From an archaeon (GTDB lineage: Archaea > Nanobdellota > Nanobdellia > Woesearchaeales > UBA9642): a stretch of 64,000 nt of DNA. Shown in pieces: positions 23,119 through 56,514 of the stretch. The DNA lies in the NCBI GenBank assembly GCA_043806035.1, contig JAZDHK010000033.1, forward strand, positions 1 through 64,000. Direction: 5' to 3'. The notes under the pieces were generated by a model. The model saw nothing but the letters and a program-made list of their open reading frames with translations. It ran no database searches and was not told where the DNA came from. A program made the translations under genes and the position numbers. Positions within the stretch are counted from its first letter, which is position 1; each line of letters starts with the position of its first letter.

Positions 23119-26100
23119 ATGAAGGGGCAACTCACGATATTCGTCATTTTGGGCATAGTGCTCTTTGTAGCCTTCACCTTCCTCTTCTTCGCCAGGGCTA
23201 CGGTCGTGAGCCTGTCAGCGAACACGCAGCAAAAGCAAGCATACGCAGATCTTATCGAAACGAGCCCCATACGGTATCGCATCTATTCCTGTCTCGACGC
23301 CGTCACGAACGAGGGCGTGTACTGGCTCGGTCTGCAAGGCGGCGTCCTCTATGATTTTCAGGATGGCAACACCACATTTGATCCTACAGGGCAAGGCACG
23401 CAGTGGCTCAGATACAATGCGTCGGGGACGCTCGGATATGAATATGATGCGGCACATGTTGCGTATGGTTTGAAAGAGCAGCTGGATTCGGGCTGTGTCT
23501 ATATTGGACCTCCTGACTATCCATATCCTCATCGGTATGCCATCAGTCCTCTGCCGACAATGTATTCTGGCTATCAAGACTGGATTGCGTTGGGATTTTG
23601 TTCTGATGTCAATCTTGCAGGAGGTCCTTTAGGGCAGAACGTGCTGCAAAAATTGTGCAGCCCAACGGGCCCTAATCGATATCAAGTGTCTGCAGACAGT
23701 ACGAGGACGTGCTGGAACATACTGAACGGCACGCCGAATGTACAGGAAGAATTAGCAGGTTACATGCAGAAACAACTCAAGGGCTGTGTGAATTTCTCCG
23801 AGTATGCGAATATCAGCCAGCACAACATAACGGTCGTTGACAATCCAAACATCACCATCACGTATGGTGTGGATGGATTTGCCATCGATGTGACGTATCC
23901 TTTTGTCGTCTACATTCATGGTAGAGAACCGATTGTCTCTTTTGCGAAATTCAGCAGACAATATCCTGTCCGTCTCAAGGAGATGTTCCAAAAAATAACC
24001 ACCATCATCGGTAGAGATGCACGGAGCGTGCTCTTTAACCTGTCCGACATTCCAGGATCGTATTCTGGTTGGCCTGCAGATTATGTCGTCTATCGCGCGA
24101 TGAACGTGTGTACGGATCCTTTGTGTGGTGTGTATTACTACGATGACATTATCCAAATAATAGACACAGCATCTTTGGTGAAAGGAAAACCATTCCTGTT
24201 CCAATTTGCCGTGCAGGACAGACCTCCCGTTCTTGATTATTTGCACAATATTGCGGCAGGCGGGTTTGATATTGCTATTGCAGAGAACCAGACACTCATC
24301 ATTGATCCACGAGGATATGATCCTGATGAAGGTGTATTGACGTACAACTATTCAGGATGGAAAGAGACAGAAGATGCGTACTTTAACTTCACCGGCTGCA
24401 TGGCAGATATGACAAACTGCATTAACGACCCGTCCTTGTATGTTGTAACTGTTCCTTTTGCTCCATACAATTTGTCGTATTCATTCTGGTATGTGACTAC
24501 AGGAAGGAATGCGTCATACGTGACAAACAGTTCTGACACGGGATTGCATTTTGTGACAATCACGGTGACAAAGGAGAGGGGTTTGCAGGATTGGCAGAAT
24601 GTCTCCATTCTCGTCTATGACTTGCCTTTGGCGACACTGAATGGCATGAACAACTATTCCGACCTCACTGGAGGTAAGGAGTTGTGGGGGTCATTGGAAG
24701 ACGTCTACATTCTCAATGGCTCGGGAAGCAGAGGGAGTCTGCTGCACAACACATCTCGGGTGAATTTCATCTGGAACGACACGACCTGGCCCTGGGGTGT
24801 TATCGGTGTTTTTGAATATCAGCTCGTTCCTGACGGTTTGTATGACATTTCGTCCATACGTCCCTTGCCGTTCAATCAAATAGGAACGCACACGATGTCT
24901 TTGCAGATCAATGACACGACGGGCATATTGAGTGCCCCCGCGTACTGGGATGTCGATGTGAAGGAATGCCTGCCGCATAGAAACCCGTCACAATCTAGTT
25001 ATCCGTATGGTTCAGGGTCTGATTTTTTTAGAAACCACACGTGTTGTACTGATGTGGGAACTTATGCTGGGTCGAGTGTGAATTGTTACGGCAAATCGTA
25101 TTGGTCTTGTAATCCTTCTACGTTGTGTGGTTCTGTATTTAATGAAATTCCTCCCGCGCAACTCGCTATAGGTGTTGATCCGTTTGATGGCACAATCATT
25201 CCCGCAACAGCGATAACAGTGCCGCGCGTTGCTGATCCTGGTGAGTGCAACGACATCTACTACAGGACGTACCAGCAGAACTGCAGCGATAACAGAGGCA
25301 ACGTGTGCGGTGGTGCAGTCCTTGATCGTTGGATAAAAAGCGTTGATTGCCAGAGTGTTCTTACTGCGTCTGGAGATTACTGTGTCGGACCGTGCAATCC
25401 TTTGGATTCTCATTGTCACAGTCCTGCATGTCAGAATACAGGATTTAATGAAGCAACATATGGTCATTCCTGCTTTAATTACAGCCCGGGGCAGACGTTC
25501 AAAACAAATTTTATTACACCACCCGCTGTGAATGGTGTGTGTAACACCAACTGGGCGTGCTCCAAGGACACCAGCATCATCATGAATTCAGGCCATTATG
25601 TGGGAACGAGTCCAGGAACGTATGCTGATACGGGGGGAGCATGGAGCAACTATTCCTGCAGGGCGACGTGCGATGGTGTGGGAGGATGTACCTTTGCGTA
25701 TAATTGCACAAGATGCATCGATACGTGGGGAGGTGTTGCTCACTGTATTTGGAATACGGACCATTATGATTATTTTGGAGAATACTCTGCATGCAACCCC
25801 ACAGATCCTTCAGGACCGTGTACGGGAACACAATTACTACAATGGCCGTCGTGTGATCCGTGGTGGTGCTGTACTGCTTCAGCAGGTTGTTATGATGAAT
25901 GTTCTGCAACGCCGTATCATGAAGATTGCATTGTCAGGGATGCTTGTTTTTCTCCTGGATGTGACTACAATTGGGTTTCTGGATCGTGCGGGTATGACTA
26001 TACGCACGGATATATGGTTATGGAAGGAGCTGCTTTGGGTGGTGCGTGTAGTTCTGTTCCGGGCAGAGAAGGGCTTTGTTGCAATAGTACGAATTATTGC

Positions 26101-26142
26101 TGTCAAAATTGGCACAACGGCGGCAGCTGTTACCAATACTAA
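23119..26142 (+). CDS. Large surface protein with class III (pilin-like) N-terminus, PKD/Ig-like middle and Cys-rich C-terminus
   Basis: MKG|QLTIFVILGIVL..; GYDPDE..LTY.Y, LNGSGS Ig/PKD motifs; dense Cys in last ~390 aa; no C-terminal TM. Confidence 0.75.
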   Translation: MKGQLTIFVILGIVLFVAFTFLFFARATVVSLSANTQQKQAYADLIETSPIRYRIYSCLDAVTNEGVYWLGLQGGVLYDFQDGNTTFDPTGQGTQWLRYNASGTLGYEYDAAHVAYGLKEQLDSGCVYIGPPDYPYPHRYAISPLPTMYSGYQDWIALGFCSDVNLAGGPLGQNVLQKLCSPTGPNRYQVSADSTRTCWNILNGTPNVQEELAGYMQKQLKGCVNFSEYANISQHNITVVDNPNITITYGVDGFAIDVTYPFVVYIHGREPIVSFAKFSRQYPVRLKEMFQKITTIIGRDARSVLFNLSDIPGSYSGWPADYVVYRAMNVCTDPLCGVYYYDDIIQIIDTASLVKGKPFLFQFAVQDRPPVLDYLHNIAAGGFDIAIAENQTLIIDPRGYDPDEGVLTYNYSGWKETEDAYFNFTGCMADMTNCINDPSLYVVTVPFAPYNLSYSFWYVTTGRNASYVTNSSDTGLHFVTITVTKERGLQDWQNVSILVYDLPLATLNGMNNYSDLTGGKELWGSLEDVYILNGSGSRGSLLHNTSRVNFIWNDTTWPWGVIGVFEYQLVPDGLYDISSIRPLPFNQIGTHTMSLQINDTTGILSAPAYWDVDVKECLPHRNPSQSSYPYGSGSDFFRNHTCCTDVGTYAGSSVNCYGKSYWSCNPSTLCGSVFNEIPPAQLAIGVDPFDGTIIPATAITVPRVADPGECNDIYYRTYQQNCSDNRGNVCGGAVLDRWIKSVDCQSVLTASGDYCVGPCNPLDSHCHSPACQNTGFNEATYGHSCFNYSPGQTFKTNFITPPAVNGVCNTNWACSKDTSIIMNSGHYVGTSPGTYADTGGAWSNYSCRATCDGVGGCTFAYNCTRCIDTWGGVAHCIWNTDHYDYFGEYSACNPTDPSGPCTGTQLLQWPSCDPWWCCTASAGCYDECSATPYHEDCIVRDACFSPGCDYNWVSGSCGYDYTHGYMVMEGAALGGACSSVPGREGLCCNSTNYCCQNWHNGGSCYQY

Positions 26143-26199: not shown

Positions 26200-29100
26200 G
26201 TGGTGGAACGTCGGTTACTCATTATTGCGCTATTGCTAGGCTTTGTTCTCCTGCCATCCGCGTTTGCGGAGTGGGGGTGCTGCTGTGAAGGGGCAGGTTC
26301 TGGCGATTACGTGCCGAGTGCGGCAGATTGCGCGGGCAGTTTCATTCCTGATTCTGCGTTTGGCCACGCCATGGATGCAGATTCATGTTATGGCTTTTGC
26401 AATCCTTCTCCCTTAAGTTGTGCCGTTGATGGCACGATAGATTATGTGAATGGCGAACAATGCGAGCCCCCTGCTCTTGGAACGATGCCTTGCCAGACCT
26501 TCAGCCCGCAATACACTGCAGGCCAGCTGTTCTGTTTTGACAATTGCCAATTCAACACGTCTAACTGCACGCAATGTAGTAGCGACTATTGTTTCAATAG
26601 TACGCATCTGGTTCACTGCTCTTCAGTATCGTTAGAAGAGTGCCAGAGCGGTTCTTGTGTCGCGGGAGCATGTACATCTCCAAGTTGTGGATACACTCCA
26701 GGAACGTGCGTCCCCGGCCAGCCATACATGTACGATGGGTCAGCTTGCGGCCACACATTCTTCAACTGCACATGCAATACAACAAGATGCAGTGCAGGTT
26801 GCAATGCAGTCACGGGACTGTGCAATCCAGTCTCTGGTGTGACCTGCACGTTATTTGAGGGGGGCAACATGCTAATTTATTTTGTTGGAGAGCATGCCTG
26901 CCAGGACAATCACTACCTCACTTGCCAAGACGGTGGTGGCTATGGTGTCTGGGATAACATAACCTGTGATCCTTCCGAATATTGTTCAGTAACGGGCTGC
27001 CAACTATTGTCAGGATGCACGGATGGAGAAATTCAGTGCCTGAGCGGCCCTTCCTACTTGAACTGCAGCTCAAACACTTGGTTTCCTATGAATTGTGATC
27101 CCGAATATGTGTGCAGTAGCGGAGCTTGTATTAACAGGACATTGGTATGTACGCCTGAAGAATGCACACCAAATGAGTTTTCCATGACATGCATTGACAA
27201 CGACACCTATGCAGCTAACACGTGCAATATGAACGCTTCTGGTTGTGGTGAGTGGAACAACGGGTATGGCAGCTGCTCAGCATCAGGACAGTATTGCAAT
27301 ATGACGACAAACACCTGCGAGACACCACCTTTGCCTCCAGGAAATCCGTGCACTGATTCTTGCTTAGCTATTGGGTTTGGCTGCAGATCTGACGGCAACT
27401 TGTACGAATGTATGAATGTGACAACATCCGCATACGGTCCGGGATGGTGCCTGAATTGGACGTTGAATCAGACGTGTTCTGGTGGATCAGTTTGTAATGC
27501 GTCAGCTCAAGCTTGCACCTTCTCGTCGGATTGTCCCGCCGGTGCACGGGTGTGTGCGGACGCCTATACAGAACAAATATGTACTTGGAATGCCAGCATG
27601 TCGGCGTATCGTTGGCAGAGCAATCCTTGCATGCCATCGTTCGTGTGCATTGCGGGAGTGTGCGCTGAGAATTTCAGCTTCAGCGGTTTCCTCTTCGATG
27701 CAACTAACGCTTGGCTTGATGGTCAAGTAATTGTCCAGCAGGGATTTACACAATGGATCTTCCCAACAGTTGCTGGAAGGTACATCACCCTTCCCTTAAT
27801 TCCTGCACTGTACTACAACTTGACAGCAAAAAGCACAGGGTACAGGCCGAACATGACATGTGCGCTGCTCGACCAAACGAAAGAAATTAACTTCACCCTC
27901 CAGCCATTGCAGACCATACGAGTCTTCGGAAGGGTTAACGATACTAACGGAAACAATCTTTCTGGAGTCAATGTCAGCACGGAGCACTTCTGGAATCTCT
28001 CCGTCAATGGCGACTACAGTGTGCTCGCGTATGAGGGAGACTTTTTGTTCACGGCATTCCATCCTAATTATGCGCTTCACCAACATCAATTCAGCACCCT
28101 TGTGGATCAGGAATGGAACGTAACGCTGACGGAGACGTCGTGCTTCTGGTTCCAGAAACGAACGCCGCAGCTGATGGCGAGCGTCGTGCAAGGGCAACGC
28201 CGTGTTGATCTCTTCTGGACGAACCCGTGCAATGGGTACAAGTTCACGCTCTACAAATCCAATGGGTCATGCACGAACTTGCGGCCGTACATACAGAACC
28301 TAACAACTCTTTCCTTCCAGGACAGGGACATCGAGGGAGGGATGAGCTACTGTTATGCCGTCGCCGTATTCCATGATGCCATCAACGGCCCGCAGACCAT
28401 ATCTCCCCCTGCGTATGTCAGTGCGATGGACGAGCATTGTCTCAATGGCATCTCTAGTTTTTGCAGCGAGGACAGAACGCAACTCTTTAACTGCACAAGC
28501 ACGAACAATGCGACAGATATTACTGCAGTATCGCATGGCAACGCCACGTTGGACAGGGTTATCTGCCTTGATGGAAACAGCACCTCGCCTGCAAAATTCA
28601 CGTACAAAGCCAACTGCACCACGTGTGGCGGCTTGTTCAACATGTTCAACTACCCGCTCAGTATATCCTATAGGGGACTTGTTTTTTTCTCTATTGATGA
28701 AGATAATGATACCAACCGGACGTGTTCCCAAATTCCCATATGCTATGCTGCACCAACACCCACTGTGAAGGATGCATACGACTCATGTGAGAACGTGCAT
28801 TCCTGTTATGACTATGCTTCAGAGGCAGCGTGCATCAGCGATAACACCTCTTGCAGGGTGGCGCAGGCAGCTGCGCAGAAAGGCTGTGCGTGGCAGCAAT
28901 TGCAAGGCTTCTCAACTCTCGGAAAGGGAGTCTGCAGTCCTGTCGATGAGTCCTTGCAGGACTGTAGCCAATGCAATAATCAGTATTTCGGCTGCTCGCA
29001 AGAGACGTGTGCTGCATACGGCAGTTGCTATTACAACGCGCACAGATACTCCATGTATGACGCCGCACCCATCAGAACGTGCATGAACAAGAGAGACGTC

Positions 29101-32100
29101 GCTTGCGAATGGTATGATCTCGAAGAGTGCGCCCCTTCACAAAATTATTCCATGAATCACACAACGCACGCCAGGCTAACCTTTAGTAATGACTCGCTCG
29201 GCTTAGGGTTGTGTGCGCTTGTCACCGAACCAAATCCTGATGATCCAGTACTAAACGTTACTTCCTGCGTCAAGGACGCGAACAATGACGACAGTCACGA
29301 TTGCGAAATTGGTGACGTTTCCTGCATGCTCGATTTCAACCCACCAATAACGAACTTCAGCTATCCGTCCAGGATCAGCGATGACTTCTTCAGTCTGAAC
29401 TGGTCAACCATCGACGAGGAAGGGCATCAGGCCACGACGTATATTTGCTTTAACGAGACAACGTGCACGCCGCAAACAACAATCACCGCGCACCCGTATC
29501 AGCTCACCGCCGACAAGTTCAATGTACCAGGCAATTACACGTTCTTTTACTATGCAGAAGATACTGCGCACAATCTCGAAGTGGTCAAGAACTTCACGCT
29601 TTTCGTGGACAAGTACGTCAACATGAACGTAACCAATTTCAGAACGTACATCTTCGATGCCGTTGCAGATGAGTGGAAGACCACGCTCGCCATTAACTTC
29701 TCTAATCCTGACAATGAATTGGTGCTGTGCTGGGCAAATCTTACCAGGCAGGACAACCACCTCCTCATCGATTCAGACCTCGTCATCAACATGTCGGAAG
29801 GGAAGGAATGGCTGCAGACATTCGAGAATCTTCCCGACGCAACATATCTCTATACGTGGAAATGCTATGATACCGTCGCCAACGTGAATAGTGGCGTGCA
29901 GACCTTGCGCCTTGCTGCGAACGCCAGCATTTACGACGAAGACCCGGTAGGCAGAATTTTGAACACGACCAGCGTGACCATTGCTGCGCACACGCATGAG
30001 GATGGCATGTGCAGGTACAATGAGAGCTTCATGCCATACGCCAGTATGAGCTCTTCTTTCGATCCCGCCACATACGTTGCTGCCGACAATTACCTGCATG
30101 CAAAAACAATAACTCTCCCCGCGAATGCAGCATACACGTATTACATACAGTGCAACCTCACTGACGGGTATGGCAATTACCGGATTTTTGGCAAGGACAC
30201 GAACTACGTATGGTTCAGCATCGACACGCAAGCACCGATAACGGCACTAGTCGATAATAATGGAGATGGCATCGATGATCAAATAGACCACTGGATGCCC
30301 TACCGAGGATTCAGGCTGAACTGCCTCGACCCAGCCATTCCAGCACCAGGAGAGTTTGGTTGCGAGAACATCTCGTACTGCCTAGGCTACTTCTGCTCAC
30401 CAACGCCTGTTACGACTGACGAATTGCCGCTAACGAACGACGTCATCCCGTACGTGCAATACCTCAAATATTATTCTACTGATGCGGGCGGCAATGGGGA
30501 ACCGCAAAGCATGACGCTGCTCTCGTTCGATAATCTCACTCCGGATTTCACCTTGTCCTTGAATGCGTTCTACGTGACGCGGGGCCTGAACATCATCACC
30601 AACCAAACGTCAGTCGTCATCACGCCCGATGCAATAGACTACCTGTTCAGCCAGGCAACGTTCGGGCAGTTAGGCACGATAAATCTCCCACTGACAAACT
30701 TCACCATCACGGGCAAGCTGCGCGTTCTTCCAAACACGAACGAGATGATCCTGACCTTCAGGGCAAATGCAGCATCCAATTATTCTCTTAAGATATTCAA
30801 CAATGGAACGCCCAATCGCATCATCTTCTTCAAGGACGGTAGCCATCTAGAGCATATAGATCATGTTCTTCCTTTGAACACAGAACTACCCTTTGTTTTT
30901 GATGCCAAAGGTGACACATTCAACTTCAGCGTAGACAACGTTTACCTGAATGTCACGGACACTACGTACGCTCTTGGATCATTAAAGAGAACTGCATCGC
31001 AAGTCCAATTCTCTGACTTGCTCGTCAAGACAACGCACGAATACACAAGTGGCGTCGATTCAACAACCATCACTCCGCAGACAAGAACGTTGAGTTTAGG
31101 ACCGCAAGCGCTCTCGTTCACCGTTGCAGACTTTGCAGGGAATGAAAGAACGAAATCCTTCAACGTCACCCTTGATACGCAACCGCCAAGCATACAAATC
31201 ACGAGCATGCGTGACGGCATGAATGCAAATGTTCTGAGCACGGGCAACGCAGAGGTCGGCACGTTCTTCATCGTCAACTTCACCATCAACGACACGAACT
31301 ATACGGGGAGCGAACAGAACATCAACCTCAGCATACTGAACGGCAGCGGCGTCATCTTTACAGACTCATTCGCAGAACAGAACGCGTATTCCGAACGTTT
31401 CAACTTCACCGACCTCAACAATTCAGGGAACAGCATTAATCTTTCCATCGGCACGTACACGCTGCGGCTGGAAGCAGAAGACCCCTTCGGCCACGCGGCA
31501 GTGCTTGATCACCAGTTCGTCATCAACGACACCATTCCTCCTGCCTTCACACTCTCCATCAATGCGACACGCAACCTTTCCGTTGCAAGCCATCCCTATA
31601 TGCTCTTGCGCAACAAGCAATACCAGCTCGACATCACCGCATCAGAAAACGTCAACGATCTGCAGGCAGTCCTGCTCTTTGTAGATGATGGAGAGCCAAG
31701 GCTACTCGACGTGAACGGCTCAGGAATGTATTACACTGCAGTCATTGACTCACGGACGTTCAGGGGCAAGAACAACAAGGCAGGAAACATTACTGTCGCT
31801 GCAATCGATCTTACCGGCAATCTGGGCAGTGCGCATGTTAACGTTACTGCGGCCACGCTCGGCAAGAGCCAACCATCAATCTTCATCCCAAATGTCTCTG
31901 AAAAATACACGAGAGGAGTGGAAACCATCTACGGATACGCGCCCACAACGAACAATCCAGAAGGGAATCTGGGCATACGAGGATTCTTGACGAGCAACAC
32001 TTCCTTGAGCGTCGACCAGTTCTTCACAGAAGCATTTACGGACTGGACATGGACGGGCAACACCACCTCTGCTCCCCCAATAACGAGCTCCATCACGGCA

Positions 32101-46540: not shown

Positions 46541-46583
46541 TCCAGACCGCAATCATTAAAAGCAACGCATTCCAGGGGACTGT

Positions 46584-47093
46584 ATGAACGCGCAAGTGCA
46601 AAGCCAGATTTTCATTTACATCCTTGTTATAGTAGTTGTCGGTTTGCTGCTCCTGCTCGGCTACAAAGCCATCGGAAACTTGCGTAATGATGCGTGCAAG
46701 GTCAACGAGGTTAGCCTGAAAGCAGAGCTCGAGACTGCAGTCCAGGATAACAGCGCGTACAAGGCGTCTGACGTGAGAACATTCCAGGCGGGCTGTGCAG
46801 GCAGTGTGCTCTGCTTTGCTGACGCTGCTCTGGTAGAGGGCACGGGGGGCGTTGATTTTCCCTTGCAGCTCGGCAGGCCCGCAACGTATTTTTTTTACGT
46901 CAATGACAGCATGAATGCGCACGTGCTAAGAAATGTGTTCATCCTGGACAATGAAGGCACGATGAACGAGCGGGCAATATTCATTCCTCGCGTCGAGGTG
47001 GAGCAGAACCTCACCTGCATCGAGGCAGTGCAGGGACTGTTCAAGGTGCGTTTTGAGGGCACGGGCAAGGGAACGAAGGTTTTCCCTGGGTGA
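46584..47093 (+). CDS. Class III signal (pilin-like) protein
   Basis: MNA|QVQSQIFIYILVIVVVGLLLLLG + small globular domain. Confidence 0.7.
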   Translation: MNAQVQSQIFIYILVIVVVGLLLLLGYKAIGNLRNDACKVNEVSLKAELETAVQDNSAYKASDVRTFQAGCAGSVLCFADAALVEGTGGVDFPLQLGRPATYFFYVNDSMNAHVLRNVFILDNEGTMNERAIFIPRVEVEQNLTCIEAVQGLFKVRFEGTGKGTKVFPG

Positions 47094-47096
47094 AGT

Positions 47097-48143
47097 ATGC
47101 AAAGAGGTGTGTTTGAGATCCAGTTCAACTGGATCTTCGTCATCATAGCAGGAGGCGTCATCCTCTTCTTTTTCCTGTCATTGATTAGCAAGCAGAAGGC
47201 GACGAGCGACGAGTCCATCAACCAGGACGTGCTGCGCAGGCTCGACACCATCCTCATCAGCACCGAGCAAGGCTATCAGACGTACAAGGAATTGCATCTT
47301 GTCAAGACACAACTGACGTTCACATGCGAGGATACGTCTCCATCGCTGACGACGCAAGGCATCATCAGCAATTTGCAGATAGGCAGCTTCTCTGTTGACA
47401 CACCGACGCAGATACTCTTCACGCCACCCTCGCTCAATACGGACACGTTCCAATTATGGACGGACACATGGGACCAGCCGTTCCGCGTTTTGCCCTTTCT
47501 CTACGTGACCGCCCCAGAAGTGTCCTTTTACATCGTCGAAACCACTCCGCCAGATCGTTCGCAGGAAATCTATGAATTACTGCCCGCAAATGTGAGCAAG
47601 AAACTCATCACTGCTGCAGACATCAATTACTTGCCGAACAAGAACGACCAATACAGTGTGGTCATTTTTCTCGATGCAGCAGTCAATCTCGCAGATCCTC
47701 TGTATACTCCTTCGCAGCTGAAAGGTGACGTACGGGCAGTCAAGGTGGAATCTACTGGGGATGCTGGTGAGGTGACGTTTTACAAGAAATCGTTTGTGGG
47801 GAATTTTTTCGAAAACGGGACGCTGCCTTTCATAGGCAACGAGATGCTCCTCGGGTCGATAGTGGCTGCGGACGCGCAGGCATACGCGTGCAATGTCAAG
47901 AAGGCGCTCGTGCGCTACAAGACCATTACTGAATTGCACCTTGCCCGGGTAATAAACCTGTCTGGCATGACCGATCCTACCTGCATAGGACCGTTGACCG
48001 CAGGACGAAGGACGCTCGAGTCCATGAACACAACGCTCAATTTCACAACGTCAGCGTTCCAGATGCTTGATTTATGCAGTACAGATTTGCAGACGAGCAA
48101 TGAAGATCTCGTGAGAGGAAGACGATGCCCACTCATCTACTGA
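47097..48143 (+). CDS. Class III signal (pilin-like) protein
   Basis: MQRG|VFEIQFNWIFVIIAGGVILFFF. Confidence 0.72.
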   Translation: MQRGVFEIQFNWIFVIIAGGVILFFFLSLISKQKATSDESINQDVLRRLDTILISTEQGYQTYKELHLVKTQLTFTCEDTSPSLTTQGIISNLQIGSFSVDTPTQILFTPPSLNTDTFQLWTDTWDQPFRVLPFLYVTAPEVSFYIVETTPPDRSQEIYELLPANVSKKLITAADINYLPNKNDQYSVVIFLDAAVNLADPLYTPSQLKGDVRAVKVESTGDAGEVTFYKKSFVGNFFENGTLPFIGNEMLLGSIVAADAQAYACNVKKALVRYKTITELHLARVINLSGMTDPTCIGPLTAGRRTLESMNTTLNFTTSAFQMLDLCSTDLQTSNEDLVRGRRCPLIY

Positions 48144-48607
48144 AGAAAGGACAATTGCAAATGCTCGAAAGCATAGGTGTCATCATCATCATAACCTTCC
48201 TCATCTTCTTCAGCTTCAGCATCTACCAACGATTCCATGCCAGCGAGATAGCCAGGAAAAATCAGCAGCAGAACCAGCTTTCTGCCATCGATGTTGCAAA
48301 TAGGATAGGGGAACTGCCAGAACTGCAGTGCAGCCACGTCGATGTTGTTACTGTAGGCTGTTTTGACCTGGTGAAAGTGCAAACCTTCGCAGCATTCGCA
48401 ACGTCTCCAGCATTCAGGCTCATGTACTATCCCCTCTTGAGGGAGAGCAGCATTACCGTCTACGAGACGTATCCTTCCCCACACAACTTCACCATCTACG
48501 AGCAGAATGCCACGAACACCAGCATACCATTCTTCATGCCTATAACTATCTACCACCCGCAAGAGCGAACGTATGGCTTCGGCTACATCGAGGTGCTCAA
48601 GGAATGA
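48125..48607 (+). CDS. Class III signal (pilin-like) protein
   Basis: KKG|QLQMLESIGVIIIITFL; LPELQCS. Confidence 0.72.
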   Translation: MPTHLLKKGQLQMLESIGVIIIITFLIFFSFSIYQRFHASEIARKNQQQNQLSAIDVANRIGELPELQCSHVDVVTVGCFDLVKVQTFAAFATSPAFRLMYYPLLRESSITVYETYPSPHNFTIYEQNATNTSIPFFMPITIYHPQERTYGFGYIEVLKE

Positions 48608-49089
48608 AAGCACAGATGGAAATCATGGGGTTAGCTGTCATCGTCGTCCTCATTGCCCTGGGCATTTTCATCTTCATCGGATTGTCGGCACGGTTCGGCG
48701 AGGTCAACCAGATTGTGAAACCCGAAGCGTACAATGACGAGCGTCTAGCGACGACGTACGTTGATGCGCTCCTTCGAACATCCGTCCCTAGCTGTCATGC
48801 CTTGCATGTCGATGAACTGCTTCGCGACTGCGCCTTGAATAACAGGACGTGCGGTGCTTTGGGTAGTTGTGAGCTCGTGCAACTCGTCATCGAAAATGTC
48901 ACCAACGCCACGCTGGACGTGTGGGGGAAGAACTATTCCTTGAACGTCACGTATCCGTTGGGCACGAAAGGGATAAGCTTCAGCAAAGGACCTCCTTGCG
49001 TGCGAAGGTATGGTGTGGAGCCGTACACGGTGAGACTTCATCCGTTTCCGGGAGATGTGCTTGTAGAATTGTCCCTCTGCAAAAAATGA
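48604..49089 (+). CDS. Class III signal (pilin-like) protein
   Basis: MKA|QMEIMGLAVIVVLIALG; ATGA overlap with the upstream gene. Confidence 0.75.
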   Translation: MKAQMEIMGLAVIVVLIALGIFIFIGLSARFGEVNQIVKPEAYNDERLATTYVDALLRTSVPSCHALHVDELLRDCALNNRTCGALGSCELVQLVIENVTNATLDVWGKNYSLNVTYPLGTKGISFSKGPPCVRRYGVEPYTVRLHPFPGDVLVELSLCKK

Positions 49090-49135
49090 TGTGCTAAGAA
49101 CAAACAATATAAACGTGTACGTCGGTTGAATCATT

Positions 49136-49231
49136 ATGACTATCGGTTTTTGGGCAAAGTTGCTCTTCATCTGCATCGTCTTGGGAGCACTCATCGTTAT
49201 GACAATAAAACTCGTGGGCATATTTTCGTGA
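49136..49231 (+). CDS. 31-aa single-TM micropeptide (not in ORF track)
   Basis: MTIGFWAKLLFICIVLGALIVMTIKLVGIFS*; ATATAAA at 49107-49113; stop 4 nt before the next start. Confidence 0.55.
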   Translation: MTIGFWAKLLFICIVLGALIVMTIKLVGIFS

Positions 49232-49235
49232 ATGC

Positions 49236-50162
49236 ATGGAAACTAAACCTTTGGCAACGGTTATTATGGCAGTCATCATAGCCGTGCTACTCTTAGGGAT
49301 GCTTGCATACTCTATCGCTACTATCAAGAAGTTTGAGGACAGGGACAAGTGCAGGCTCACCTCGTGGGCGCAGGCGAACAGCCAATACCAGCCAGGCATT
49401 GCAGGCATCATTCCAGGACCAAAGTTCGATTTAGGATTACGCCAAGACTGCCCAACCTATTACGTGACGTTCACCAAGGACAAGGTCACGGAGAGGAAAA
49501 GCAACAGCGACGACACGGAAGTGCTCAGCGTCTATGACAGCACACGGGGGAAACTGGTACAAAAGTACAAGCAGCTCACACCAGACATGGTCAACAGCGT
49601 CGTCGCAGAACAAATGCGTTACTGCTACTACCAGTTCTGGGAAGGCAAAGTGCCTGTCTTTTACAACAAGTATACGGACATCAATGTTTTATCAACGATT
49701 GCATTCGGTGTTGTTGGTGTTGCACTGACCCATGCGAACAACGTCCGCTGCTTTCCCTGTGCGGAATTGCACTTCAGCGACAGTGTTGATTATGACTCAA
49801 ACAAAGGCAGTGGTCTGTCCGTGCAAAACCTTCCAGAAACACAACTCCCCCCTTCTGAAAATACGGCAAGCATAGGCTATTATTTGGTCAACAGGAAAGG
49901 CAAGAACATGAACAGCACGTATTTTGATTATTTGAACAGCTACAACGGCTACTGCCAACTTACGACGGGCAAGCAGGGAAGCTGCCTGGCTGAAGAGCTC
50001 AATGACATGGACATAGATCCCTATCTCGTGCTGGAAAAAGACAAGTACTACAAAGTCTTGCTTATCAGGAGGGGAGAGGAACGGGACGAGTACACCATAA
50101 CATCGTATGTTGTCCCTGCTGATCGGGAAGCAAAGATATGCACGGAGGGCATGGTGTCATGA
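49236..50162 (+). CDS. N-anchored Cys-containing surface protein, paralog of 50159
   Basis: N-terminal TM; C..., CPT, AEQMRYCYYQFWEG, CFPC pattern. Confidence 0.75.
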   Translation: METKPLATVIMAVIIAVLLLGMLAYSIATIKKFEDRDKCRLTSWAQANSQYQPGIAGIIPGPKFDLGLRQDCPTYYVTFTKDKVTERKSNSDDTEVLSVYDSTRGKLVQKYKQLTPDMVNSVVAEQMRYCYYQFWEGKVPVFYNKYTDINVLSTIAFGVVGVALTHANNVRCFPCAELHFSDSVDYDSNKGSGLSVQNLPETQLPPSENTASIGYYLVNRKGKNMNSTYFDYLNSYNGYCQLTTGKQGSCLAEELNDMDIDPYLVLEKDKYYKVLLIRRGEERDEYTITSYVVPADREAKICTEGMVS

Positions 50163-51043
50163 AGGCACAAATAAGCAGTCTCTTGCTCGTCACCATTGTC
50201 ACGATACTGACCTTGCTCGTCGTGCTGCTCGTCATGTCCGGCATATTCTCGAGCACGAATGATGCCTTTGCGTACAAGGACTGCCAGGCGAGCGTGGAAA
50301 AATTCATCGCCCGCACAAAATTGACGAAAGATTACACGACGGCGAGCATCACGTGCAGGACGAGAACGGTGAATGTACGCGCCACTGATCAGGAACAGGT
50401 GAAACGGCAACTTGCGGAGGAAATGCGCAGCTGCTGGTCAACATTCAAACAAGGTAATGTACGGTTCTTCGTTGAAGAGGGCACGTACTGCCACCCCTGT
50501 GCTATTGTCAATTTTAATAAGAGAATGAAACCGATTACTGATTTCAATGCGTACTTGGCGCAAAGGAAGATGACGAGCAGCAACCTCACGTATGCGGCTT
50601 ATTTTATAGGTTACAGCACGCCTGGAGGACAGGAATTAGCAGTCTTCACAGATAATGCAAGTTTTGGAAATGCTCTTCTCCTTGATCCGCAGAAGCATTA
50701 TGTCGTGCTGTTCCACCACATGATGGGCATGGAAACCATACGACAATTCAAAGAAAGAATAGGCGGTGAGACGAACGCAGTATTTTTAGGCATTGGAGCG
50801 GGGGGTGCCGCTGCTGGAGTTGTGGGTATTATTCTTGTTACTGCAGGAGTTGTTTCTGGACCCATAGGCTGGATCATCTTGGGCGCAGGCATGGTCATAG
50901 GGGGGGTGATTGCAGACATTTGGGGAGACCCTCCAGAATGGGTGAGCAGCATCATGCTTATAGAATACAAGCCGGGAGAACTCGAGAGGCTCGGCTGCCA
51001 ATTTGATGAAGTGCAGCAGGACATGTTCGGCAACCTAAACTAA
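50159..51043 (+). CDS. Pilin-like protein with internal Gly-zipper hydrophobic hairpin
   Basis: MKA|QISSLLLV; AEEMRSCW..F..G, CHPC; GIGAGGAAAGVVG...GPIGWIILGAG. Confidence 0.75.
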   Translation: MKAQISSLLLVTIVTILTLLVVLLVMSGIFSSTNDAFAYKDCQASVEKFIARTKLTKDYTTASITCRTRTVNVRATDQEQVKRQLAEEMRSCWSTFKQGNVRFFVEEGTYCHPCAIVNFNKRMKPITDFNAYLAQRKMTSSNLTYAAYFIGYSTPGGQELAVFTDNASFGNALLLDPQKHYVVLFHHMMGMETIRQFKERIGGETNAVFLGIGAGGAAAGVVGIILVTAGVVSGPIGWIILGAGMVIGGVIADIWGDPPEWVSSIMLIEYKPGELERLGCQFDEVQQDMFGNLN

Positions 51044-51077
51044 ACATTTATAAAATTAGTTCACGCCTTGCACGGGC

Positions 51078-51215
51078 ATGCATGGCCAGAAAAGCACTTT
51101 GAAGGAGATGATCGTTCTTGCAGCGGTGATTATCATTTTCATCATCATTTTGTCGTTTTTATTCAAGGACAAGGTTTCCAACCTGGTCGATAGCATCATT
51201 TCCGTATTCCACTAA
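51078..51215 (+). CDS. 45-aa micro-pilin-like peptide (not in ORF track)
   Basis: MHG|QKSTLKEMIVLAAVIIIFIIILSFLF...; TTTATAAA 51047-51054; stop 2 nt before the next ATG. Confidence 0.6.
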   Translation: MHGQKSTLKEMIVLAAVIIIFIIILSFLFKDKVSNLVDSIISVFH

Positions 51216-51217
51216 CT

Positions 51218-52015
51218 ATGAAAGGACAACTCAACAAGCAACTGTTGGGCTTCATCATGCTAGCCATTGCAATCATCATGGCATACTTGTTGCTCACGCA
51301 CGGCAGAGACTATGCATTCAAGATGCAATACTGGCTCTTCGGACCACCATCCGACGATGATGATCGTGCACACTACTATTTTGATCGCATGGCAGAATTC
51401 CTCGAGAGCTCCGCAGTGACGGACGATTTCTCGAAAAAATTGCCAACAGAGGTACCTTGCCTGCTTTCACGGTATGCGTACGATGAGGACAAGCCGCTCT
51501 CGAGCAAGTACTTCTTCAGCGTCGACTATGAAGGGCCTGCAGACAACCAGCAGGGCAACAAGGCATACGTCTTGCACATGCACGTGCAAACGCCATCAGG
51601 CTTCATTGATAATGCCTCAAAAAGACTGGGCGTGCAGACGTTCAGGTATAGGTGCTCTGCAATCGAGCCAAAAGTGAACAGACCTCCCGTCATGCTCGCG
51701 CAGGACGCATTCCTTTGTGGAGTGAACCCCCCTGCACGGTACATACTTCTCCCGGACCAGCACGTTGCAGGTATGCCGTTCCTGCAGGACTACGCCCAAA
51801 TAAACAAGACCACGAACACGTACTACTTTTCCCGCTACCCTTCATTGTACATCTTTGCAGACACGGCAAACCCTGTTGAAGAGGACAAATACCGATCCTA
51901 CTTTTACGTCTTCGACCCCGCAGACAGCATGTACAAGGCAAGCTCGACTCGAGACAGCATACTGCGCAGCCTGCAAGAGATTCCCTCCTGCACGTTCAAG
52001 AAGCGGAAGACGTGA
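51218..52015 (+). CDS. Class III signal (pilin-like) protein
   Basis: MKG|QLNKQLLGFIMLAIAII. Confidence 0.7.
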   Translation: MKGQLNKQLLGFIMLAIAIIMAYLLLTHGRDYAFKMQYWLFGPPSDDDDRAHYYFDRMAEFLESSAVTDDFSKKLPTEVPCLLSRYAYDEDKPLSSKYFFSVDYEGPADNQQGNKAYVLHMHVQTPSGFIDNASKRLGVQTFRYRCSAIEPKVNRPPVMLAQDAFLCGVNPPARYILLPDQHVAGMPFLQDYAQINKTTNTYYFSRYPSLYIFADTANPVEEDKYRSYFYVFDPADSMYKASSTRDSILRSLQEIPSCTFKKRKT

Positions 52016-52089
52016 CTGCGGCCGCAGCATCCGAAACCTTTAAATAGTGAAAGAGCGGCTGTATTTCTAAAAGTTTCGAGGTGACGGTT

Positions 52090-52344
52090 ATGAAGAAAGG
52101 TGTGGAACTTTCTATGAATGTCATCATCATTGCAGCAATAGCACTCGTTGTTTTGGTGATATTGGTGGTGCTTGTCCTAAACAGCGCAGGGCCTGTGGCG
52201 GACACGAACAAGTGTGGCGCGGGGCAAGGCATGTGCATCGGAGAAGGCGATGAGTGTGGTGACGGCTACATCGTGCAGCCGTTGAGCAACTGCCCGACAG
52301 CAACGCCGAAATGCTGCGTACCCTTTGGCGGCGAGCAGCAATAA
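52090..52344 (+). CDS. Small pilin-like protein with beta-defensin-like 6-Cys domain
   Basis: MKKG|VELSMNVIIIAAIALVVL; C-x6-C-x6-C-x11-C-x6-CC; GAGGTGA SD; TTTAAATA 52039-52046. Confidence 0.8.
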   Translation: MKKGVELSMNVIIIAAIALVVLVILVVLVLNSAGPVADTNKCGAGQGMCIGEGDECGDGYIVQPLSNCPTATPKCCVPFGGEQQ

Positions 52345-52354
52345 AGGTGCAAGC

Positions 52355-52591
52355 ATGAGAAGAGGTGTGGAACTTTCTCTTAATTTTATCATTATTGCGG
52401 TCATCGTGCTCGTCATCCTGCTCATAGCCATCGTTCTCGTCATCAATGGCGGCACGAGCTTCAATAGGGACACGAAGACCTGCACGTCAAGAGGAGGACA
52501 GTGCATTCCGGGAGGGGACAGTTGCCCTTCTGGCTCGATACCTGTTCCTGGCGTAGAGGGATGTGACGGCAGCTGCTGCCTCGGGGCATAG
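52355..52591 (+). CDS. Small pilin-like protein with beta-defensin-like 6-Cys domain (paralog)
   Basis: MRRG|VELSLNFIIIAVIVLV; CTSRGGQC...C...C...CC. Confidence 0.8.
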   Translation: MRRGVELSLNFIIIAVIVLVILLIAIVLVINGGTSFNRDTKTCTSRGGQCIPGGDSCPSGSIPVPGVEGCDGSCCLGA

Positions 52592-52594
52592 CTC

Positions 52595-52731
52595 ATGAGG
52601 AGTACAGAGCTGGCGATGAACAGCATCGTCACCATGGCCGTTGCTGCCTGTCTCTGTTGTTCATCTACTCAGGTGATGGTTCAATTAACGAATGCTGCAT
52701 ATCAGGTGAGAGTTGTTGCATAGACATATGA
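52595..52731 (+). pseudogene. Degenerate third pilin-defensin copy
   Basis: MRSTELAMNSIVTMAVAA, then in a shifted frame LLFIYSG...ECCISGESCCIDI*, whose stop overlaps the next ATG (ATGA). Confidence 0.6.
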
Positions 52732-54422
52732 AGAAAGGCATGGCTGCCCTGGAGTTTGTCGGCTACTTGCTGCTGATGCTCGTGGTCATTCTAGTAGCGA
52801 TGTATCTCATCAATGGAGGAATAAGCATGTTTGGCATGGCTACCGGCTGTGAAGGGCAGAACGGCGTGTGCAAGGAATCCTGTGGTGAGAATGAACGAAC
52901 GGTCATTTTCTTCAAGGGCTGTCCCCCGTCTGATGACAGGGCAGATAAGGAGAAGAAGCACTGCTGCGCCCCGCAAAAAGAAGATCAGGAAGGAGGCAGC
53001 GAGAGTGATGCGAAGTGCAAGAACCAAAATAATGGGTACGCCTGCGGCAATGGCACGCTCAGATACGGCAATAGAAACATTCCCTTCGTTTCCATGGTGT
53101 GCTTAGACCAGAAATGCGTGCCTCGCTGCGACTTTTGTGCAAGAGTCCTGGGCAGCGATACTGTTTGCAATCCGCTGCCAGGCGTGAATCAAGAAGTCAC
53201 GTTCACTGATGCTTTCTCGTGCAGAGCCATGGAAAGTCCTCTGGATTGTGATGCACTCAACCTGCATGGTGACTGCATCAGAGGCTTCTGCCCGGGTGAC
53301 ACGTACTGTGCAAAACGAGACGGCAATGGAGCGAGAGATGGTGAATTGTACATCCGCTATTCCGACCAGCCAGAATACTGTGCGGGAGACTGCGCCTTGC
53401 CTGGCACAATCGTGATCGTCGGTGACCCATTACGCCTCACCGTCAGTTACTCTGGACCGGACAGGAAGCTCTGCGCGGTAGATGTACTCAGAGAGGATGG
53501 GCAAGCCAACAAATTCGTCAGGCAGTTCACACCAGCATGCAGGAACGTTTCCTTAGATAATGGTCCATGCTCATTCAGGTGGGTGTTTGAATGCGGAGGA
53601 GATGCACCTGCATTCGTGCTCGAGAATGACCCATTGCAGTTTCTAGTGAACAGTTCAGAATATGAATTGTTGAAGAATGTGCCCTTGCGTATCGATGTCA
53701 TCGCCTATAATTGTGACGTCAGCGATAAGCAGGGCAACGTCCAGACGAGTCCTTGCCAGGACAAGGGAAGAAACGAATTAGCCCACGCCCGCATTTCTCT
53801 CGACTTAATGAAGCCGTCATCTGCAGAGCTGCGCAAAAGAAATCCCATAATCACCATAGCATCATCCAATCCATCGACGAAATCCTGCATTGTTACCTGC
53901 AAGAACTCATTGGGGGAGCAGTGTGGGCCGCTGAACTACCTGGGTGTGGGTGCAGGAGAGCAGTGTGGGGAGAACTTGAACTGGGAGGGAAATTTGCCCA
54001 CACTAGCCTACAACAAGTGGAACGAACAGCCAATAGACAGAACAGCAAACCCTGTATTGTGCTTCAGAGGCAGGCTCACGAGCAACCCGCTCTTCGTTAA
54101 TTACACGACAGACCCTAACGGGTGTGAGCGGTTCTTCTACCAGAAAGTAGCGGAGGAGCAAGTGTGCCTGTGGAACAGCTGTGCACAAATTTCTGATGCT
54201 GCACAATGTGAAGACACGCTCAGCCAAGGCTGCAGCTTCAGCTGTATTTGGGATAATGTGAAAAAGACGTGCCGGCTGTGCAGCACGCCCGAAACCCAAT
54301 GCAAGTACATCAGAGACAGGGCTGCCTGTGATGCTGCAGCAGAAAAGTGCGGCATGCAATGCCACTGGCGGCGACGATTCCTGTTCCTGCCTGACACGTG
54401 CGAGCCGGGGCCGAGACCATGA
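52728..54422 (+). CDS. Pilin-like Cys-rich multidomain protein
   Basis: MKKG|MAALEFVGYLLL; CEGQNGVC..SC...C...CC defensin-like module; further Cys-rich modules. Confidence 0.75.
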   Translation: MKKGMAALEFVGYLLLMLVVILVAMYLINGGISMFGMATGCEGQNGVCKESCGENERTVIFFKGCPPSDDRADKEKKHCCAPQKEDQEGGSESDAKCKNQNNGYACGNGTLRYGNRNIPFVSMVCLDQKCVPRCDFCARVLGSDTVCNPLPGVNQEVTFTDAFSCRAMESPLDCDALNLHGDCIRGFCPGDTYCAKRDGNGARDGELYIRYSDQPEYCAGDCALPGTIVIVGDPLRLTVSYSGPDRKLCAVDVLREDGQANKFVRQFTPACRNVSLDNGPCSFRWVFECGGDAPAFVLENDPLQFLVNSSEYELLKNVPLRIDVIAYNCDVSDKQGNVQTSPCQDKGRNELAHARISLDLMKPSSAELRKRNPIITIASSNPSTKSCIVTCKNSLGEQCGPLNYLGVGAGEQCGENLNWEGNLPTLAYNKWNEQPIDRTANPVLCFRGRLTSNPLFVNYTTDPNGCERFFYQKVAEEQVCLWNSCAQISDAAQCEDTLSQGCSFSCIWDNVKKTCRLCSTPETQCKYIRDRAACDAAAEKCGMQCHWRRRFLFLPDTCEPGPRP

Positions 54423-55087
54423 GGGGAGAGGCAACACATGATCAAGTGATAGGGTTCATCATACTTGTCTTCATCCTGGTGGCTGTTGTTTTTGGCATTT
54501 ATTGGAAATTCTTTCACAAGAGCGAGCAGCAAATAGCTGACTTAGAAAGTTGCGGAACGTTCAGCATCGTCGTCGCTGGCGACAGCCTGACGCGGCCAGG
54601 AGAATGCATTGTTGGAAAATGCCCGACGGACAGGCAATACAAGCAAGTGCCTGGAATGTGCGATCCAGGAATGGTGTGCTGTGTGGATCAATCATTGGAA
54701 ACGGATGTTCCTGTGCTCATGTACCGGCTCAAGGGAGAGGATACTCGGAAGTACAAGCCAATGCAAGGCAGCATAAATCTCGAAAAGGGCAAGAAATACG
54801 TCTTCAAGATGCCACAGCTCACCGAGCAGCAGGATGCAGTATCGTGTGCAATCACCATGTACGAAGTCGATGATTTTGAGCAATTGCCCACGCAAGAGGG
54901 AGGCAATGACAACAGCGCCAGAGACGAGCGCATTGACTGGGCAAAAAACAACTGCATTGAGAATGCGACAACATGGATGGATATAATCTTTCCCGAAGAG
55001 GCCAATTATTTGCTGTTCATCAAGAGTATTGACTCCTCAGGGGAGGAACTCGTCGTTGAGCCTGTTGAGCTGAGCGTGGTCTCGTGA
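54419..55087 (+). CDS. Pilin-like protein with defensin-like module and beta domain
   Basis: MRG|EATHDQVIGFIILVFIL; C...GEC...C...C...CC. Confidence 0.72.
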   Translation: MRGEATHDQVIGFIILVFILVAVVFGIYWKFFHKSEQQIADLESCGTFSIVVAGDSLTRPGECIVGKCPTDRQYKQVPGMCDPGMVCCVDQSLETDVPVLMYRLKGEDTRKYKPMQGSINLEKGKKYVFKMPQLTEQQDAVSCAITMYEVDDFEQLPTQEGGNDNSARDERIDWAKNNCIENATTWMDIIFPEEANYLLFIKSIDSSGEELVVEPVELSVVS

Positions 55088-56514
55088 ACGGCAGCCTTGA
55101 TTTTCATTTCCTTCTTGAAGCGATCATGATTTCCATCATCGTGCTCTTCATCTTTGGTTGCGTCAATGGTGCATACCATTCGTTGACGAACGCTGACGAT
55201 AGGCAGGTGAGCCTGAACAACTTCAACGCCTTAGCAACGGGCATGCAGAGTCTCGTGAACGTGCAGGACAGAGTCATGGTACAAGGCATGACCTTCTCTC
55301 TCCCTGCCAGAGTATACGTTGTCGGCTTTGACAGCGAATGGAATGAGAATGTCAAGCAGGCAGGATTGACAGATGACAGCTCCTATGAAGGTGTGCACAA
55401 GCCACAACAATGCTTGGTGAACGAGCATTCGCCAGAGGATGCTTGCTTGTGCTTGTACGAGAATGAGCAATTCGCCTACATGCACGGTAGCGAGAACAGG
55501 TTTGGAAAATTAAGTCCAGAAGAACGCATCAAGGCGTACGAAAAGCCCATCATGGCCTGCTACGTGTTCTCCTCAAAACCCGATGTGGCGGGGAGGTTTA
55601 AGCCAATAGTCTTCCTTAGCACGTGGGCAAGCAGCGACAGTCCCGTTGCAGAGAATGCAAAAAAGCCGTTCTTTGCAACAGTCCGTCCAGACCAGCCTCC
55701 GTATGCTGGCGTCTTGGGAAGCAAGGATAACGAAGCAGGAAAATATGCATTCCTCATCTTCAAAGGCAATGACAAAACCCACACGCTCTACTACGAAAAG
55801 TATGAGACCGACGAAAAAATTTACATTTACCTTACCACGAAAGTAGCGACACAGGACCTTTCCTTCAGAGAGTACGAACTCAAAAAACAGGCAGGATATT
55901 GCAGCGACAACAGCCATGCCAATTGTGCGGGAAAGACCATAGGAACGAGCATAGGCACGGGAAGGTATGGCAATACGCTCGACGAATGGTATGCTGTTAG
56001 TCAAGGAAGGTATGCGCAAGCAGCACCCTCTGCGGTGTGCAACGGCCGTTTCACGTGCGAACCAATATCAGAGGAGAAAGGATGCAGGATCGTCTGCCAG
56101 CCGTACTGCATAGAGCAGTGCAAAGACCAGAACTGCAAGGCAGCAGTCATCACGGAAAAGTGCGAATGCAACGGCATCAAATTTTCTGGCTACTGCGCAT
56201 GCACGCAGGACGTCACCACTGGCACGTGCCCCGCCATTGACGGCATTCCCACCCTGCTCTATCACGACCAAGTCATCCAGGGATACGGCGATGCATTGCA
56301 GCAATGCATTGCCGAACACATTGCAGACGACGCGTATGTCGAAGATCAGCTGAAGAGCATAGTGCATTATGCATCAGATGACTATGCCGACTGTAGTTTT
56401 GAGCGTCTCGATGGTGACGATGCGTTCAGTGCATGCGAGCACGATGTGTGCATGGCATCGGCGAACCCTTCCTGTGTGATTGCTGCAGAAGACAGATGCA
56501 CGCCTCGACGATAA
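55084..56514 (+). CDS. N-anchored (pilin-like) Cys-rich surface protein
   Basis: GTGA overlap; MNG|SLDFHFLLEAIMISIIVLFIF; CLCLY; Cys-rich C-terminal half. Confidence 0.7.
   Translation: MNGSLDFHFLLEAIMISIIVLFIFGCVNGAYHSLTNADDRQVSLNNFNALATGMQSLVNVQDRVMVQGMTFSLPARVYVVGFDSEWNENVKQAGLTDDSSYEGVHKPQQCLVNEHSPEDACLCLYENEQFAYMHGSENRFGKLSPEERIKAYEKPIMACYVFSSKPDVAGRFKPIVFLSTWASSDSPVAENAKKPFFATVRPDQPPYAGVLGSKDNEAGKYAFLIFKGNDKTHTLYYEKYETDEKIYIYLTTKVATQDLSFREYELKKQAGYCSDNSHANCAGKTIGTSIGTGRYGNTLDEWYAVSQGRYAQAAPSAVCNGRFTCEPISEEKGCRIVCQPYCIEQCKDQNCKAAVITEKCECNGIKFSGYCACTQDVTTGTCPAIDGIPTLLYHDQVIQGYGDALQQCIAEHIADDAYVEDQLKSIVHYASDDYADCSFERLDGDDAFSACEHDVCMASANPSCVIAAEDRCTPRR

Follow-up and report, generated by a model that had tools for sequence, protein, structure and literature searches.

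Bacterial operons for minor pilins and PilY1, and the GspH-K tip of the type II secretion system (T2SS), unite a large adhesin with four pilin-like proteins of low copy number, one larger than the rest, and lie apart from the motor genes. In modular type IV pilins, such as PilB and PilC of Streptococcus sanguinis, a functional domain is grafted behind the N-terminal part of the pilin. Here we describe a locus comparable with both arrangements, at positions 23119-56514 of the first 64,000 nucleotides (the window) of contig JAZDHK010000033.1 (C33) from a genome of the archaeal order Woesearchaeales (GCA_043806035.1, or G000; 1.50 Mb in 42 contigs, 93.7% complete). It resembles the PilY1 and GspH-K sets in outline, with four pilin-like proteins, one larger, a large adhesin and a location apart from motor genes; it differs from them in being archaeal and in a leader that has Q rather than F or M at +1 and E at +3 to +6. 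Compared with PilB and PilC, the grafted domains are here murein hydrolases of several families or immunoglobulin (Ig)/cadherin-like rods.

Among archaeal filaments, the comparison is with the Epd pilus of Methanococcus maripaludis, or type IV filament (T4F) system 1, as presented in PMC13705601. Shared with it are prepilin-type leaders, an A24 peptidase, and an ATPase with two platform genes (here on another contig, C28), together with several minor pilins, accessory proteins of the adhesin type and a main pilin whose globular domain is small or absent. The locus departs from that system in lacking an ATPase, a platform gene, a peptidase and any match to a pilin hidden Markov model (HMM), in having a giant split adhesin and, in its full form, in ending with a pilin that bears a hydrolase. 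That paper describes DPANN archaea as seldom having ordered T4F loci, with ATPase and platform genes adjacent, pilin genes scattered and filament production unclear. In contrast to those scattered pilin genes, the present locus is a fixed, ordered cluster; the paper's S10 Fig and S4-S5 Tables may nonetheless show such loci.

Wall-degrading enzymes of these archaea have a literature of their own, represented here by three papers. Large murein transglycosylase proteins (fam00969) of Woesearchaeota and Pacearchaeota were taken as a possible sign of bacterial hosts (PMC8204110), a "vampiristic" lifestyle was proposed for some Woesearchaeota (PMC9723730), and a survey of archaeal peptidoglycan hydrolases (PGHs) found these "particularly prominent" in Nanoarchaeota, 32% of archaeal PGHs having a Sec or Tat signal (PMC12352652). 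The large extracellular murein-degrading proteins of these papers are probably the same genes as the hydrolase-bearing pilins described below. The words "pili" and "pilin" are absent from the main text of all three papers (S2 Table of the last may list the genes), and "class III" is absent from the main text of PMC12352652, the one paper checked for it. Relative to these texts, the present analysis adds the pilin-like N-terminal part, the place of the genes as the final ones in a conserved pilin cluster, and a swap among at least five enzyme families. Our literature search found no report of a hydrolase-bearing pilin, nor a link between a pilin cluster and the murein hydrolases of Nanoarchaeota. 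We class the locus among type IV filament gene sets, from which it stands out by its split giant adhesin and by pilins that bear hydrolases.

We consider it probable that the products of the locus belong to an apparatus resembling a type IV filament, one that attaches to bacterial cells and cuts through their wall. An earlier interpretation, made from the letters of the window (the sequence-only reading), had proposed a multi-component attachment or contact system. The comparisons below support this proposal and extend it, since murein hydrolase domains in the last gene of the cluster make a bacterium the likely contact target.

A conserved cluster of pilin-like genes

Woesearchaeota-type archaea (Nanoarchaeia) have a conserved cluster of some 20 genes, of which the window contains the proximal two thirds. 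Conservation was assessed in 40 related genomes and in a phylum-wide sample of 301. The family of the 348-amino acid (aa) protein is present in 38 of the 40 relatives, and its profile matches 269 of the 301 genomes (a count that includes two unpublished ones, G262 and G263), all of which belong to the same order or class, usually with a single match each. In a species-level genome collection, 324 loci carry relatives of this protein, under the titles Woesearchaeota, Nanoarchaeota and Nanoarchaeia except for third-party metagenome-assembled genomes with generic labels. Many records of the latter kind bear the title "uncultured Methanosarcinales archaeon", and a single one that of "Candidatus Binatia bacterium"; such titles seem generic or mistaken. 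As a lead only, a protein atlas returned just "hypothetical protein" clusters, mostly labelled Candidatus Woesearchaeota, with scores of 0.76-0.88.

Gene order is conserved as well. The succession formed by the genes for the 1007-aa protein, the giant, its partner, the 169-, 348-, 160- and 161-aa proteins, and two proteins of about 300 aa was found in 10 loci and in 20 more; with the short pilins behind it, it recurs in the same family and in other families of the order, in line with the co-occurrence in relatives that the sequence-only reading had expected. In at least 19 of 27 loci the 348-, 160- and 161-aa genes are immediate neighbours, a lower bound because weak members escape BLAST labelling and some loci stop early. 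The 1007-aa protein has a match in 39 of the 40 relatives, in many cases to its N-terminal part only; its orthologue shares a contig with that of the 348-aa protein in 23 of the 37 relatives having both, and in several of the others the matches begin at contig ends. These comparisons indicate that the locus is a conserved core locus rather than a variable island, and the earlier description of its parts as "variable" had to be abandoned. Horizontal acquisition of such an island was likewise rejected: the guanine-plus-cytosine content is flat along the whole window (0.47-0.52) and the locus is syntenic across the order.

Fifteen plus-strand open reading frames (ORFs) fill the interval 23119-56514, encoding proteins of 1007, 5299, 1038, 169, 348, 160, 161, 308, 301, 265, 87, 88, 569, 229 and 476 aa. 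A prepilin-type leader ([K/R/N]-[G/A] followed by a hydrophobic stretch) begins eleven of them (starts at 23119, 46584, 47097, 48125, 48604, 50138, 51218, 52081, 52325, 52713 and 54398); two have Sec-type signals (26200 and 42111) and two an N-terminal hydrophobic segment with no clear motif in G000 (49236 and 55084). Thus, exported proteins do fill the island as had been claimed, and the claims of Cys-rich products and overlapping genes were confirmed too: the five large proteins contain 50, 141, 36, 44 and 25 Cys, and overlaps of 4-25 bases occur at 48125/48143, 48604/48607, 50138/50162, 54398/54422 and 55084/55087.

A loose leader rule applied to the whole genome marked 67 of 1658 crude ORF calls; eight of the 67 sit in the 33-kb stretch, which amounts to 2.2% of the genome, and the leaders are therefore clustered beyond chance. 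Conservation of the motif was scored in seven orthologue families, in up to 30 relatives, as [K/R/N/Q]-[G/A/S] just before the helix. The motif was present in 22 of 24 orthologues of the 1007-aa protein, 22 of 22 for the 169-aa, 26 of 27 for the 348-aa, 23 of 25 for the 160-aa, 20 of 22 for the 161-aa, 7 of 7 for the 308-aa and 11 of 12 for the 301-aa protein, some of the misses being ORFs cut by the locus edge or by the choice of start codon. Q occupies +1 in 21, 17, 23 and 17 members of four leader families (23 of 25 in the 160-aa family). Outside the leader, the pilin-like orthologues are just 25-35% identical. The class III-like character ascribed to the leaders is putative, with support from pattern, conservation and one structural model.

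Four prepilin-like proteins, from single-copy families that keep a fixed order, form the core of the set, all encoded on the plus strand. They are the 169-aa protein (46584-47093; leader MNA-QVQSQIFIY, with the motif kept in orthologues), the 348-aa protein (47097-48143; QRG-VFEIQFNWIF), which has four conserved Cys and a C-terminal SCPxIY, the 160-aa protein (48125-48607; KKG-QLQMLES, again with the orthologue motif) and the 161-aa protein (48604-49089; MKA-QMEIMGL), which has six conserved Cys. An AlphaFold model of the 348-aa protein, built on a 27-row alignment (pLDDT 90.2, pTM 0.85), comprises a helix at residues 4-58, a beta domain (strands 63-246) and a helical bundle. The protein is hence predicted to have a pilin fold, namely a long N-terminal helix and a beta domain; an N-terminal helix is predicted for the 1007-aa protein also.

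The latter (23119-26142, plus strand) is a modular prepilin-like protein with the leader MKG-QLTIF, a middle part made of tandem Ig/cadherin-like units and a Cys-rich C-terminus that contains its 50 Cys. It matched no Pfam family. In its AF2 model (pLDDT 64.6) a helix spans residues 2-47 and a beta-rich region residues 200-620. The best Foldseek matches of the model are Ig/cadherin rods, at E values such as 3.9e-9 and with low TM-scores; foremost among them are fragments of the Aureispira grappling-hook protein GhpA (PDB entry 9fls and others related to it), which is alike in having tandem Ig-like rods. With TM-scores of 0.14-0.35 the likeness is that of Ig domains in general, and no homology is claimed. 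Elsewhere in G000, three paralogues of 700-800 aa have the KGQVTIF leader of the 1007-aa protein (C7:32125, C16:4505 and C28:31888-38837, the last adjoining a gene for a 1545-aa exported protein), and relatives carry several each. Other leader-bearing genes of the genome, outside the clusters described here, include a pair for 1254- and 184-aa proteins (C14:7680-11995) and a tandem of two pilins with KKGSLELSVNAIVVL, each about 180 aa long (C23:21284-22608).

Short pilins, of about 80-115 aa and with the same N-terminus, occur as tandem copies at the equivalent position in relatives. In the window, the first copy (52081-52344, plus strand; about 84 aa) has the leader KKG-VELSMNVIIIAAIAL and is a candidate for the main filament subunit. 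The second (52325-52591, plus strand) has RRG-VELSLNFIIIAVIVL and its likely start is an internal ATG near 52355.

Pilin-like proteins with hydrolase domains and a candidate giant adhesin

Past the short pilins, the cluster continues in five relatives (G001, G004, G005, G025 and G035) with four more leader-bearing genes, for proteins of about 300, 175, 180 and 350-1500 aa. The counterparts of this distal module in G000 lie on a contig other than C33 (C16:31412-34481). The 181-aa distal family is present in single copy in 37 of the 40 relatives, and its gene shares a contig with the 348-aa core gene in 19 of the 35 relatives having both.

The fourth distal gene specifies a murein hydrolase domain in 27 of the 36 genomes examined; the match exceeds the Pfam curated cut-off in 25 of them and falls slightly under it in G014 and G026. 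The enzyme family varies, with at least five unrelated ones represented. Peptidase_M23 was found in 12 genomes, Amidase_2 in 6, NlpC/P60 in 3 and VanY/M15 in 3; SLT is the first domain in 3 genomes and a second domain in 6 more, and Glucosaminidase, YkuD and 3D domains are also present. In nearly all of the proteins the hydrolase domain lies at about residues 200-430, preceded by some 213 N-terminal residues whose homology does not depend on the type of enzyme (34 of 36 proteins linked to at least 14 others at E<1e-3). In G000, where none of these hydrolase families is represented inside the window, the 400-aa protein encoded on C16 matches VanY (30.7 bits; cut-off 25) and M15 (28.9 bits; cut-off 27). 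This protein, the only one checked in this respect, contains H309-x6-D316 and E369-x-x-H372, which we take to be metal-binding or catalytic residues of VanY/M15.

Several observations were made around these genes. The gene after that of the VanY/M15 pilin-like protein in G000 (C16:29541-31508) specifies a product of 655 aa in which a 3D domain, another murein-related fold, was recognised (33.8 bits). A gene for an RPA-like protein with an oligonucleotide/oligosaccharide-binding fold (about 360 aa; C16:28399-29481 in G000) follows the hydrolase gene in many genomes (for example L140, L144 and L149), often with a RadA-like gene further on. A small Peptidase_M23 gene with no evident leader is found at C41:42868-43152 (73.7 bits). 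In G040 (L155, C2:244800-253800) the fourth gene is present in two copies, of 522 and 615 aa, with nearly identical N-termini and no recognised murein hydrolase; the product of the third gene has a Peptidase_C39_2 domain.

Searches of G000 for murein synthesis genes found no Mur ligase, penicillin-binding protein or FtsW/RodA, and the organism's own wall is therefore not the substrate of the hydrolases. The enzymes could conceivably feed on free murein or dead walls, or help the cell to pass through biofilm matrix, instead of opening living hosts, with the apparatus itself being real. PMC9723730 describes Woesearchaeota as organisms that degrade or recycle cell material, and the sole DNA run that holds the stretch is labelled as a biofilm metagenome (a single study), both of which fit such a role. 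We nevertheless find it improbable: the enzyme is joined to an N-terminal part bound to membrane or filament, and adhesins are encoded alongside, an arrangement that fits contact-dependent action better than a diffusible digestive enzyme.

The candidate giant adhesin is a secreted protein of 5299 aa (26200-42099, plus strand), which has a Sec signal, a Cys-rich head, a long Ig-like rod and no membrane anchor. The head, of about 500 aa, starts with GCC, and the first 500 residues hold 60 Cys; the remainder is Ig-like, with a conserved region at about 600-1400 and Pfam matches to Big_13 (38.6 bits), Big_3_3 (33.4 bits) and Glucodextran_B (33.7 bits). GCC follows the signal peptide in most orthologues, and 20 of 24 have no transmembrane (TM) segment. 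Attachment through a lipobox was considered and rejected, as the residues preceding the conserved CC vary and the CC lies past the likely signal cleavage site in several orthologues.

Immediately downstream is the gene for the anchored partner (42111-45227, plus strand; 1038 aa), with a Sec signal, Big_13 domains, a Cys-rich region, one TM segment (839-867) and, in the cytoplasm, some 170 aa of tail. In each of the 24 partner orthologues a single TM segment lies near the C-terminus and is followed by a tail of 150-355 aa. In four genomes (G017, G031, G035 and G038) a single gene combines the GCC head with a C-terminal TM segment, and in G005 one 5637-aa ORF matches both giant and partner. By these fusions, giant and partner are a single unit. 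The giant rod and anchored partner of the sequence-only reading were thus retained, while its count of some 15 pilin-like genes was lowered to about 12.

The organisation of giant and core genes allows another interpretation, in which a pseudopilus of the type II secretion kind is not a contact filament but a short piston for exporting or releasing the giant and the hydrolases. Indeed, the giant has no anchor of its own, and four conserved small pilin-like proteins, one larger, are reminiscent of the GspH-K set. However, the giant possesses a Sec signal together with a partner that is anchored in the membrane or else fused to it, and the hydrolase proteins carry the pilin-like N-terminal part themselves, hence look like subunits, not cargo. 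No likeness in sequence or fold to GspH-K or minor pilins was found: a Foldseek search of the PDB with the whole 348-aa model gave nothing at E<=0.001, and VIA-align aligned the long helix alone (Z ~6). We rate this interpretation as quite unlikely. The absence of fold matches also weighs against the filament-like apparatus that we favour.

Remaining genes and surroundings

Six further plus-strand genes of the cluster lie in the window. The first (49236-50162) encodes a 308-aa exported protein whose N-terminal hydrophobic segment has an unclear motif in G000, the motif being present in its orthologues. Next come prepilin-like proteins of 301 aa (50138-51043; leader MKA-QISS, with the orthologue motif) and 265 aa (51218-52015; leader MKG-QLNK), the latter having no BLAST match in the relatives' loci. 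Beyond the short pilins are a Cys-rich prepilin-like protein of 569 aa (52713-54422; KKG-MAALEF; 44 Cys) that matches no Pfam family, and a 229-aa protein (54398-55087) with a leader-like N-terminus, MRG-EATHDQVIGFIIL, and no homologue in the relatives' loci compared. The last cluster gene on the contig (55084-56514) encodes a 476-aa exported, Cys-rich protein with an N-terminal hydrophobic segment; it has a weak match (E 4.6e-9) to a gene in the equivalent position in G004.

One correction to the sequence-only reading concerns the minus strand. Between the partner and the 169-aa genes lies a 1.35-kb insert (45228-46583) with three minus-strand ORFs (45224-46560), for a 69-aa protein that starts with CxxC and two membrane proteins of 191 and about 88 aa, with no Pfam family. 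The insert is absent from most relatives' loci, where the 169-aa gene directly follows the partner gene; it is not part of the system.

Upstream of the cluster (20364-23118) are genes for SecY, an EMC3/TMCO1-like insertase, ribosomal protein L34e and a small ribosomal protein-like product. This neighbourhood and the cluster are kept together in G001, G004, G005 and G011 and partly in G002, G003 and G014. The next gene downstream of 56514 encodes a phosphorylase (Pfam PNP_UDP_1). No Logan contig covers the join between the last cluster gene and this one (56584-57067), the single DNA run having short contigs and low depth; the join could be a misassembly.

Assembly machinery and significance

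Searches of the whole genome with the Peptidase_A24, T2SSE and T2SSF families gave matches on C13, C28, C41 and C9 alone and never on C33, confirming that the window has no assembly ATPase, platform or PibD. The machinery is encoded elsewhere, as had been supposed: the genome holds a prepilin peptidase (Peptidase_A24 on C13, 49.4 bits) and two ATPase/platform pairs, all outside the contig of the cluster. One pair, on C28, consists of a T2SSE ATPase (117 bits) with a PilB3_C domain and two T2SSF genes, accompanied by pilins and by a VWA-bearing pilin-like protein. In having an ATPase, two separate platform genes and its own pilins, the C28 locus fits archaeal T4F system 1 (Epd-like). At the second site (L056; C41:31292-35757), the gene for a 755-aa T2SSE ATPase (44.8 bits) overlaps that for a 740-aa polytopic membrane protein. 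The latter has no Pfam match and shows 52-63% identity throughout the order; it is possibly another platform protein, and a very conserved one.

Some findings weigh against a type IV filament-like apparatus. No island protein matched Class_IIIsignal or Pilin_N (Pfam, E<=0.01) or an NCBIfam archaeal pilin model (E<=0.1), and with four small island proteins no pilin model appeared in Pfam even at E<=10. None of the loci read has an ATPase, platform or peptidase gene inside the cluster. Presence and absence do not help in choosing the pair that would serve it, as 299 of 301 genomes contain the C41-type protein and 37 of 40 relatives have the C28-type platform. In G000, and likewise in 16 of the 35 relatives, the hydrolase module and the core are on different contigs, and 9 of the 36 fourth genes show no recognisable hydrolase domain. 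No RNA run is listed as holding 46584-56514.

The failure of curated pilin HMMs, together with the lack of machinery genes in the cluster, would be expected if the N-terminal segments were uncleaved signal anchors. A membrane-bound coat or envelope complex would then display adhesin and hydrolases on the cell body, with neither filament nor type IV assembly. The near-universal occurrence of the cluster, mostly with one match per genome, would likewise suit a core envelope component. However, [K/R]-[G/A/S]-Q is conserved before the helix despite 25-35% identity elsewhere, and a plain anchor would not need this motif; tandem proteins of about 85 aa with little beyond the helix look like filament subunits; and a peptidase and two ATPase/platform pairs are retained in small genomes. 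We regard such a coat as unlikely, though less so than the pseudopilus or the feeding on murein discussed above.

If the filament-like apparatus exists as we propose, the A24 peptidase encoded on C13 would cut the leaders, and the ATPase/platform pair of C28 or C41 would build the short pilins into a filament, with the core set (169, 348, 160 and 161 aa) as its possible primer, cap or tip. A bacterial cell would be bound by the Ig-bearing 1007-aa pilin and by the giant adhesin, which its partner would hold in place, and the hydrolase-bearing pilin would cut the peptidoglycan of that cell at the contact site. A broader proposal, which we advance tentatively and hold to be somewhat doubtful, is that Woesearchaeota-type archaea, and probably sister orders, have one ancestral type IV filament in which interchangeable murein hydrolase "blades" on a pilin, at the tip or along the shaft, and a giant split adhesin serve, as a machine acting across domains, to grip and open bacterial cells.

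Woesearchaeota are among the most widespread uncultivated archaeal groups, and the locus bears on their hosts and mechanism of attachment. The locus unites two separately published threads, murein-degrading proteins and scattered DPANN T4F genes, in one ordered and near-universal cluster, and it provides named candidates: the short pilins, the four core pilin-like proteins, the split giant adhesin and the hydrolase-bearing pilins. It also offers a possible reason for the absence of recognised Sec or Tat signals from many archaeal murein hydrolases, as a prepilin route could explain part of the archaeal PGHs without one. If the proposal is true, archaeal antibacterial enzymes would have in the prepilin pathway a route of export that has been overlooked, and bacteria, not archaea, would be the main hosts or prey of a very large uncultivated group.

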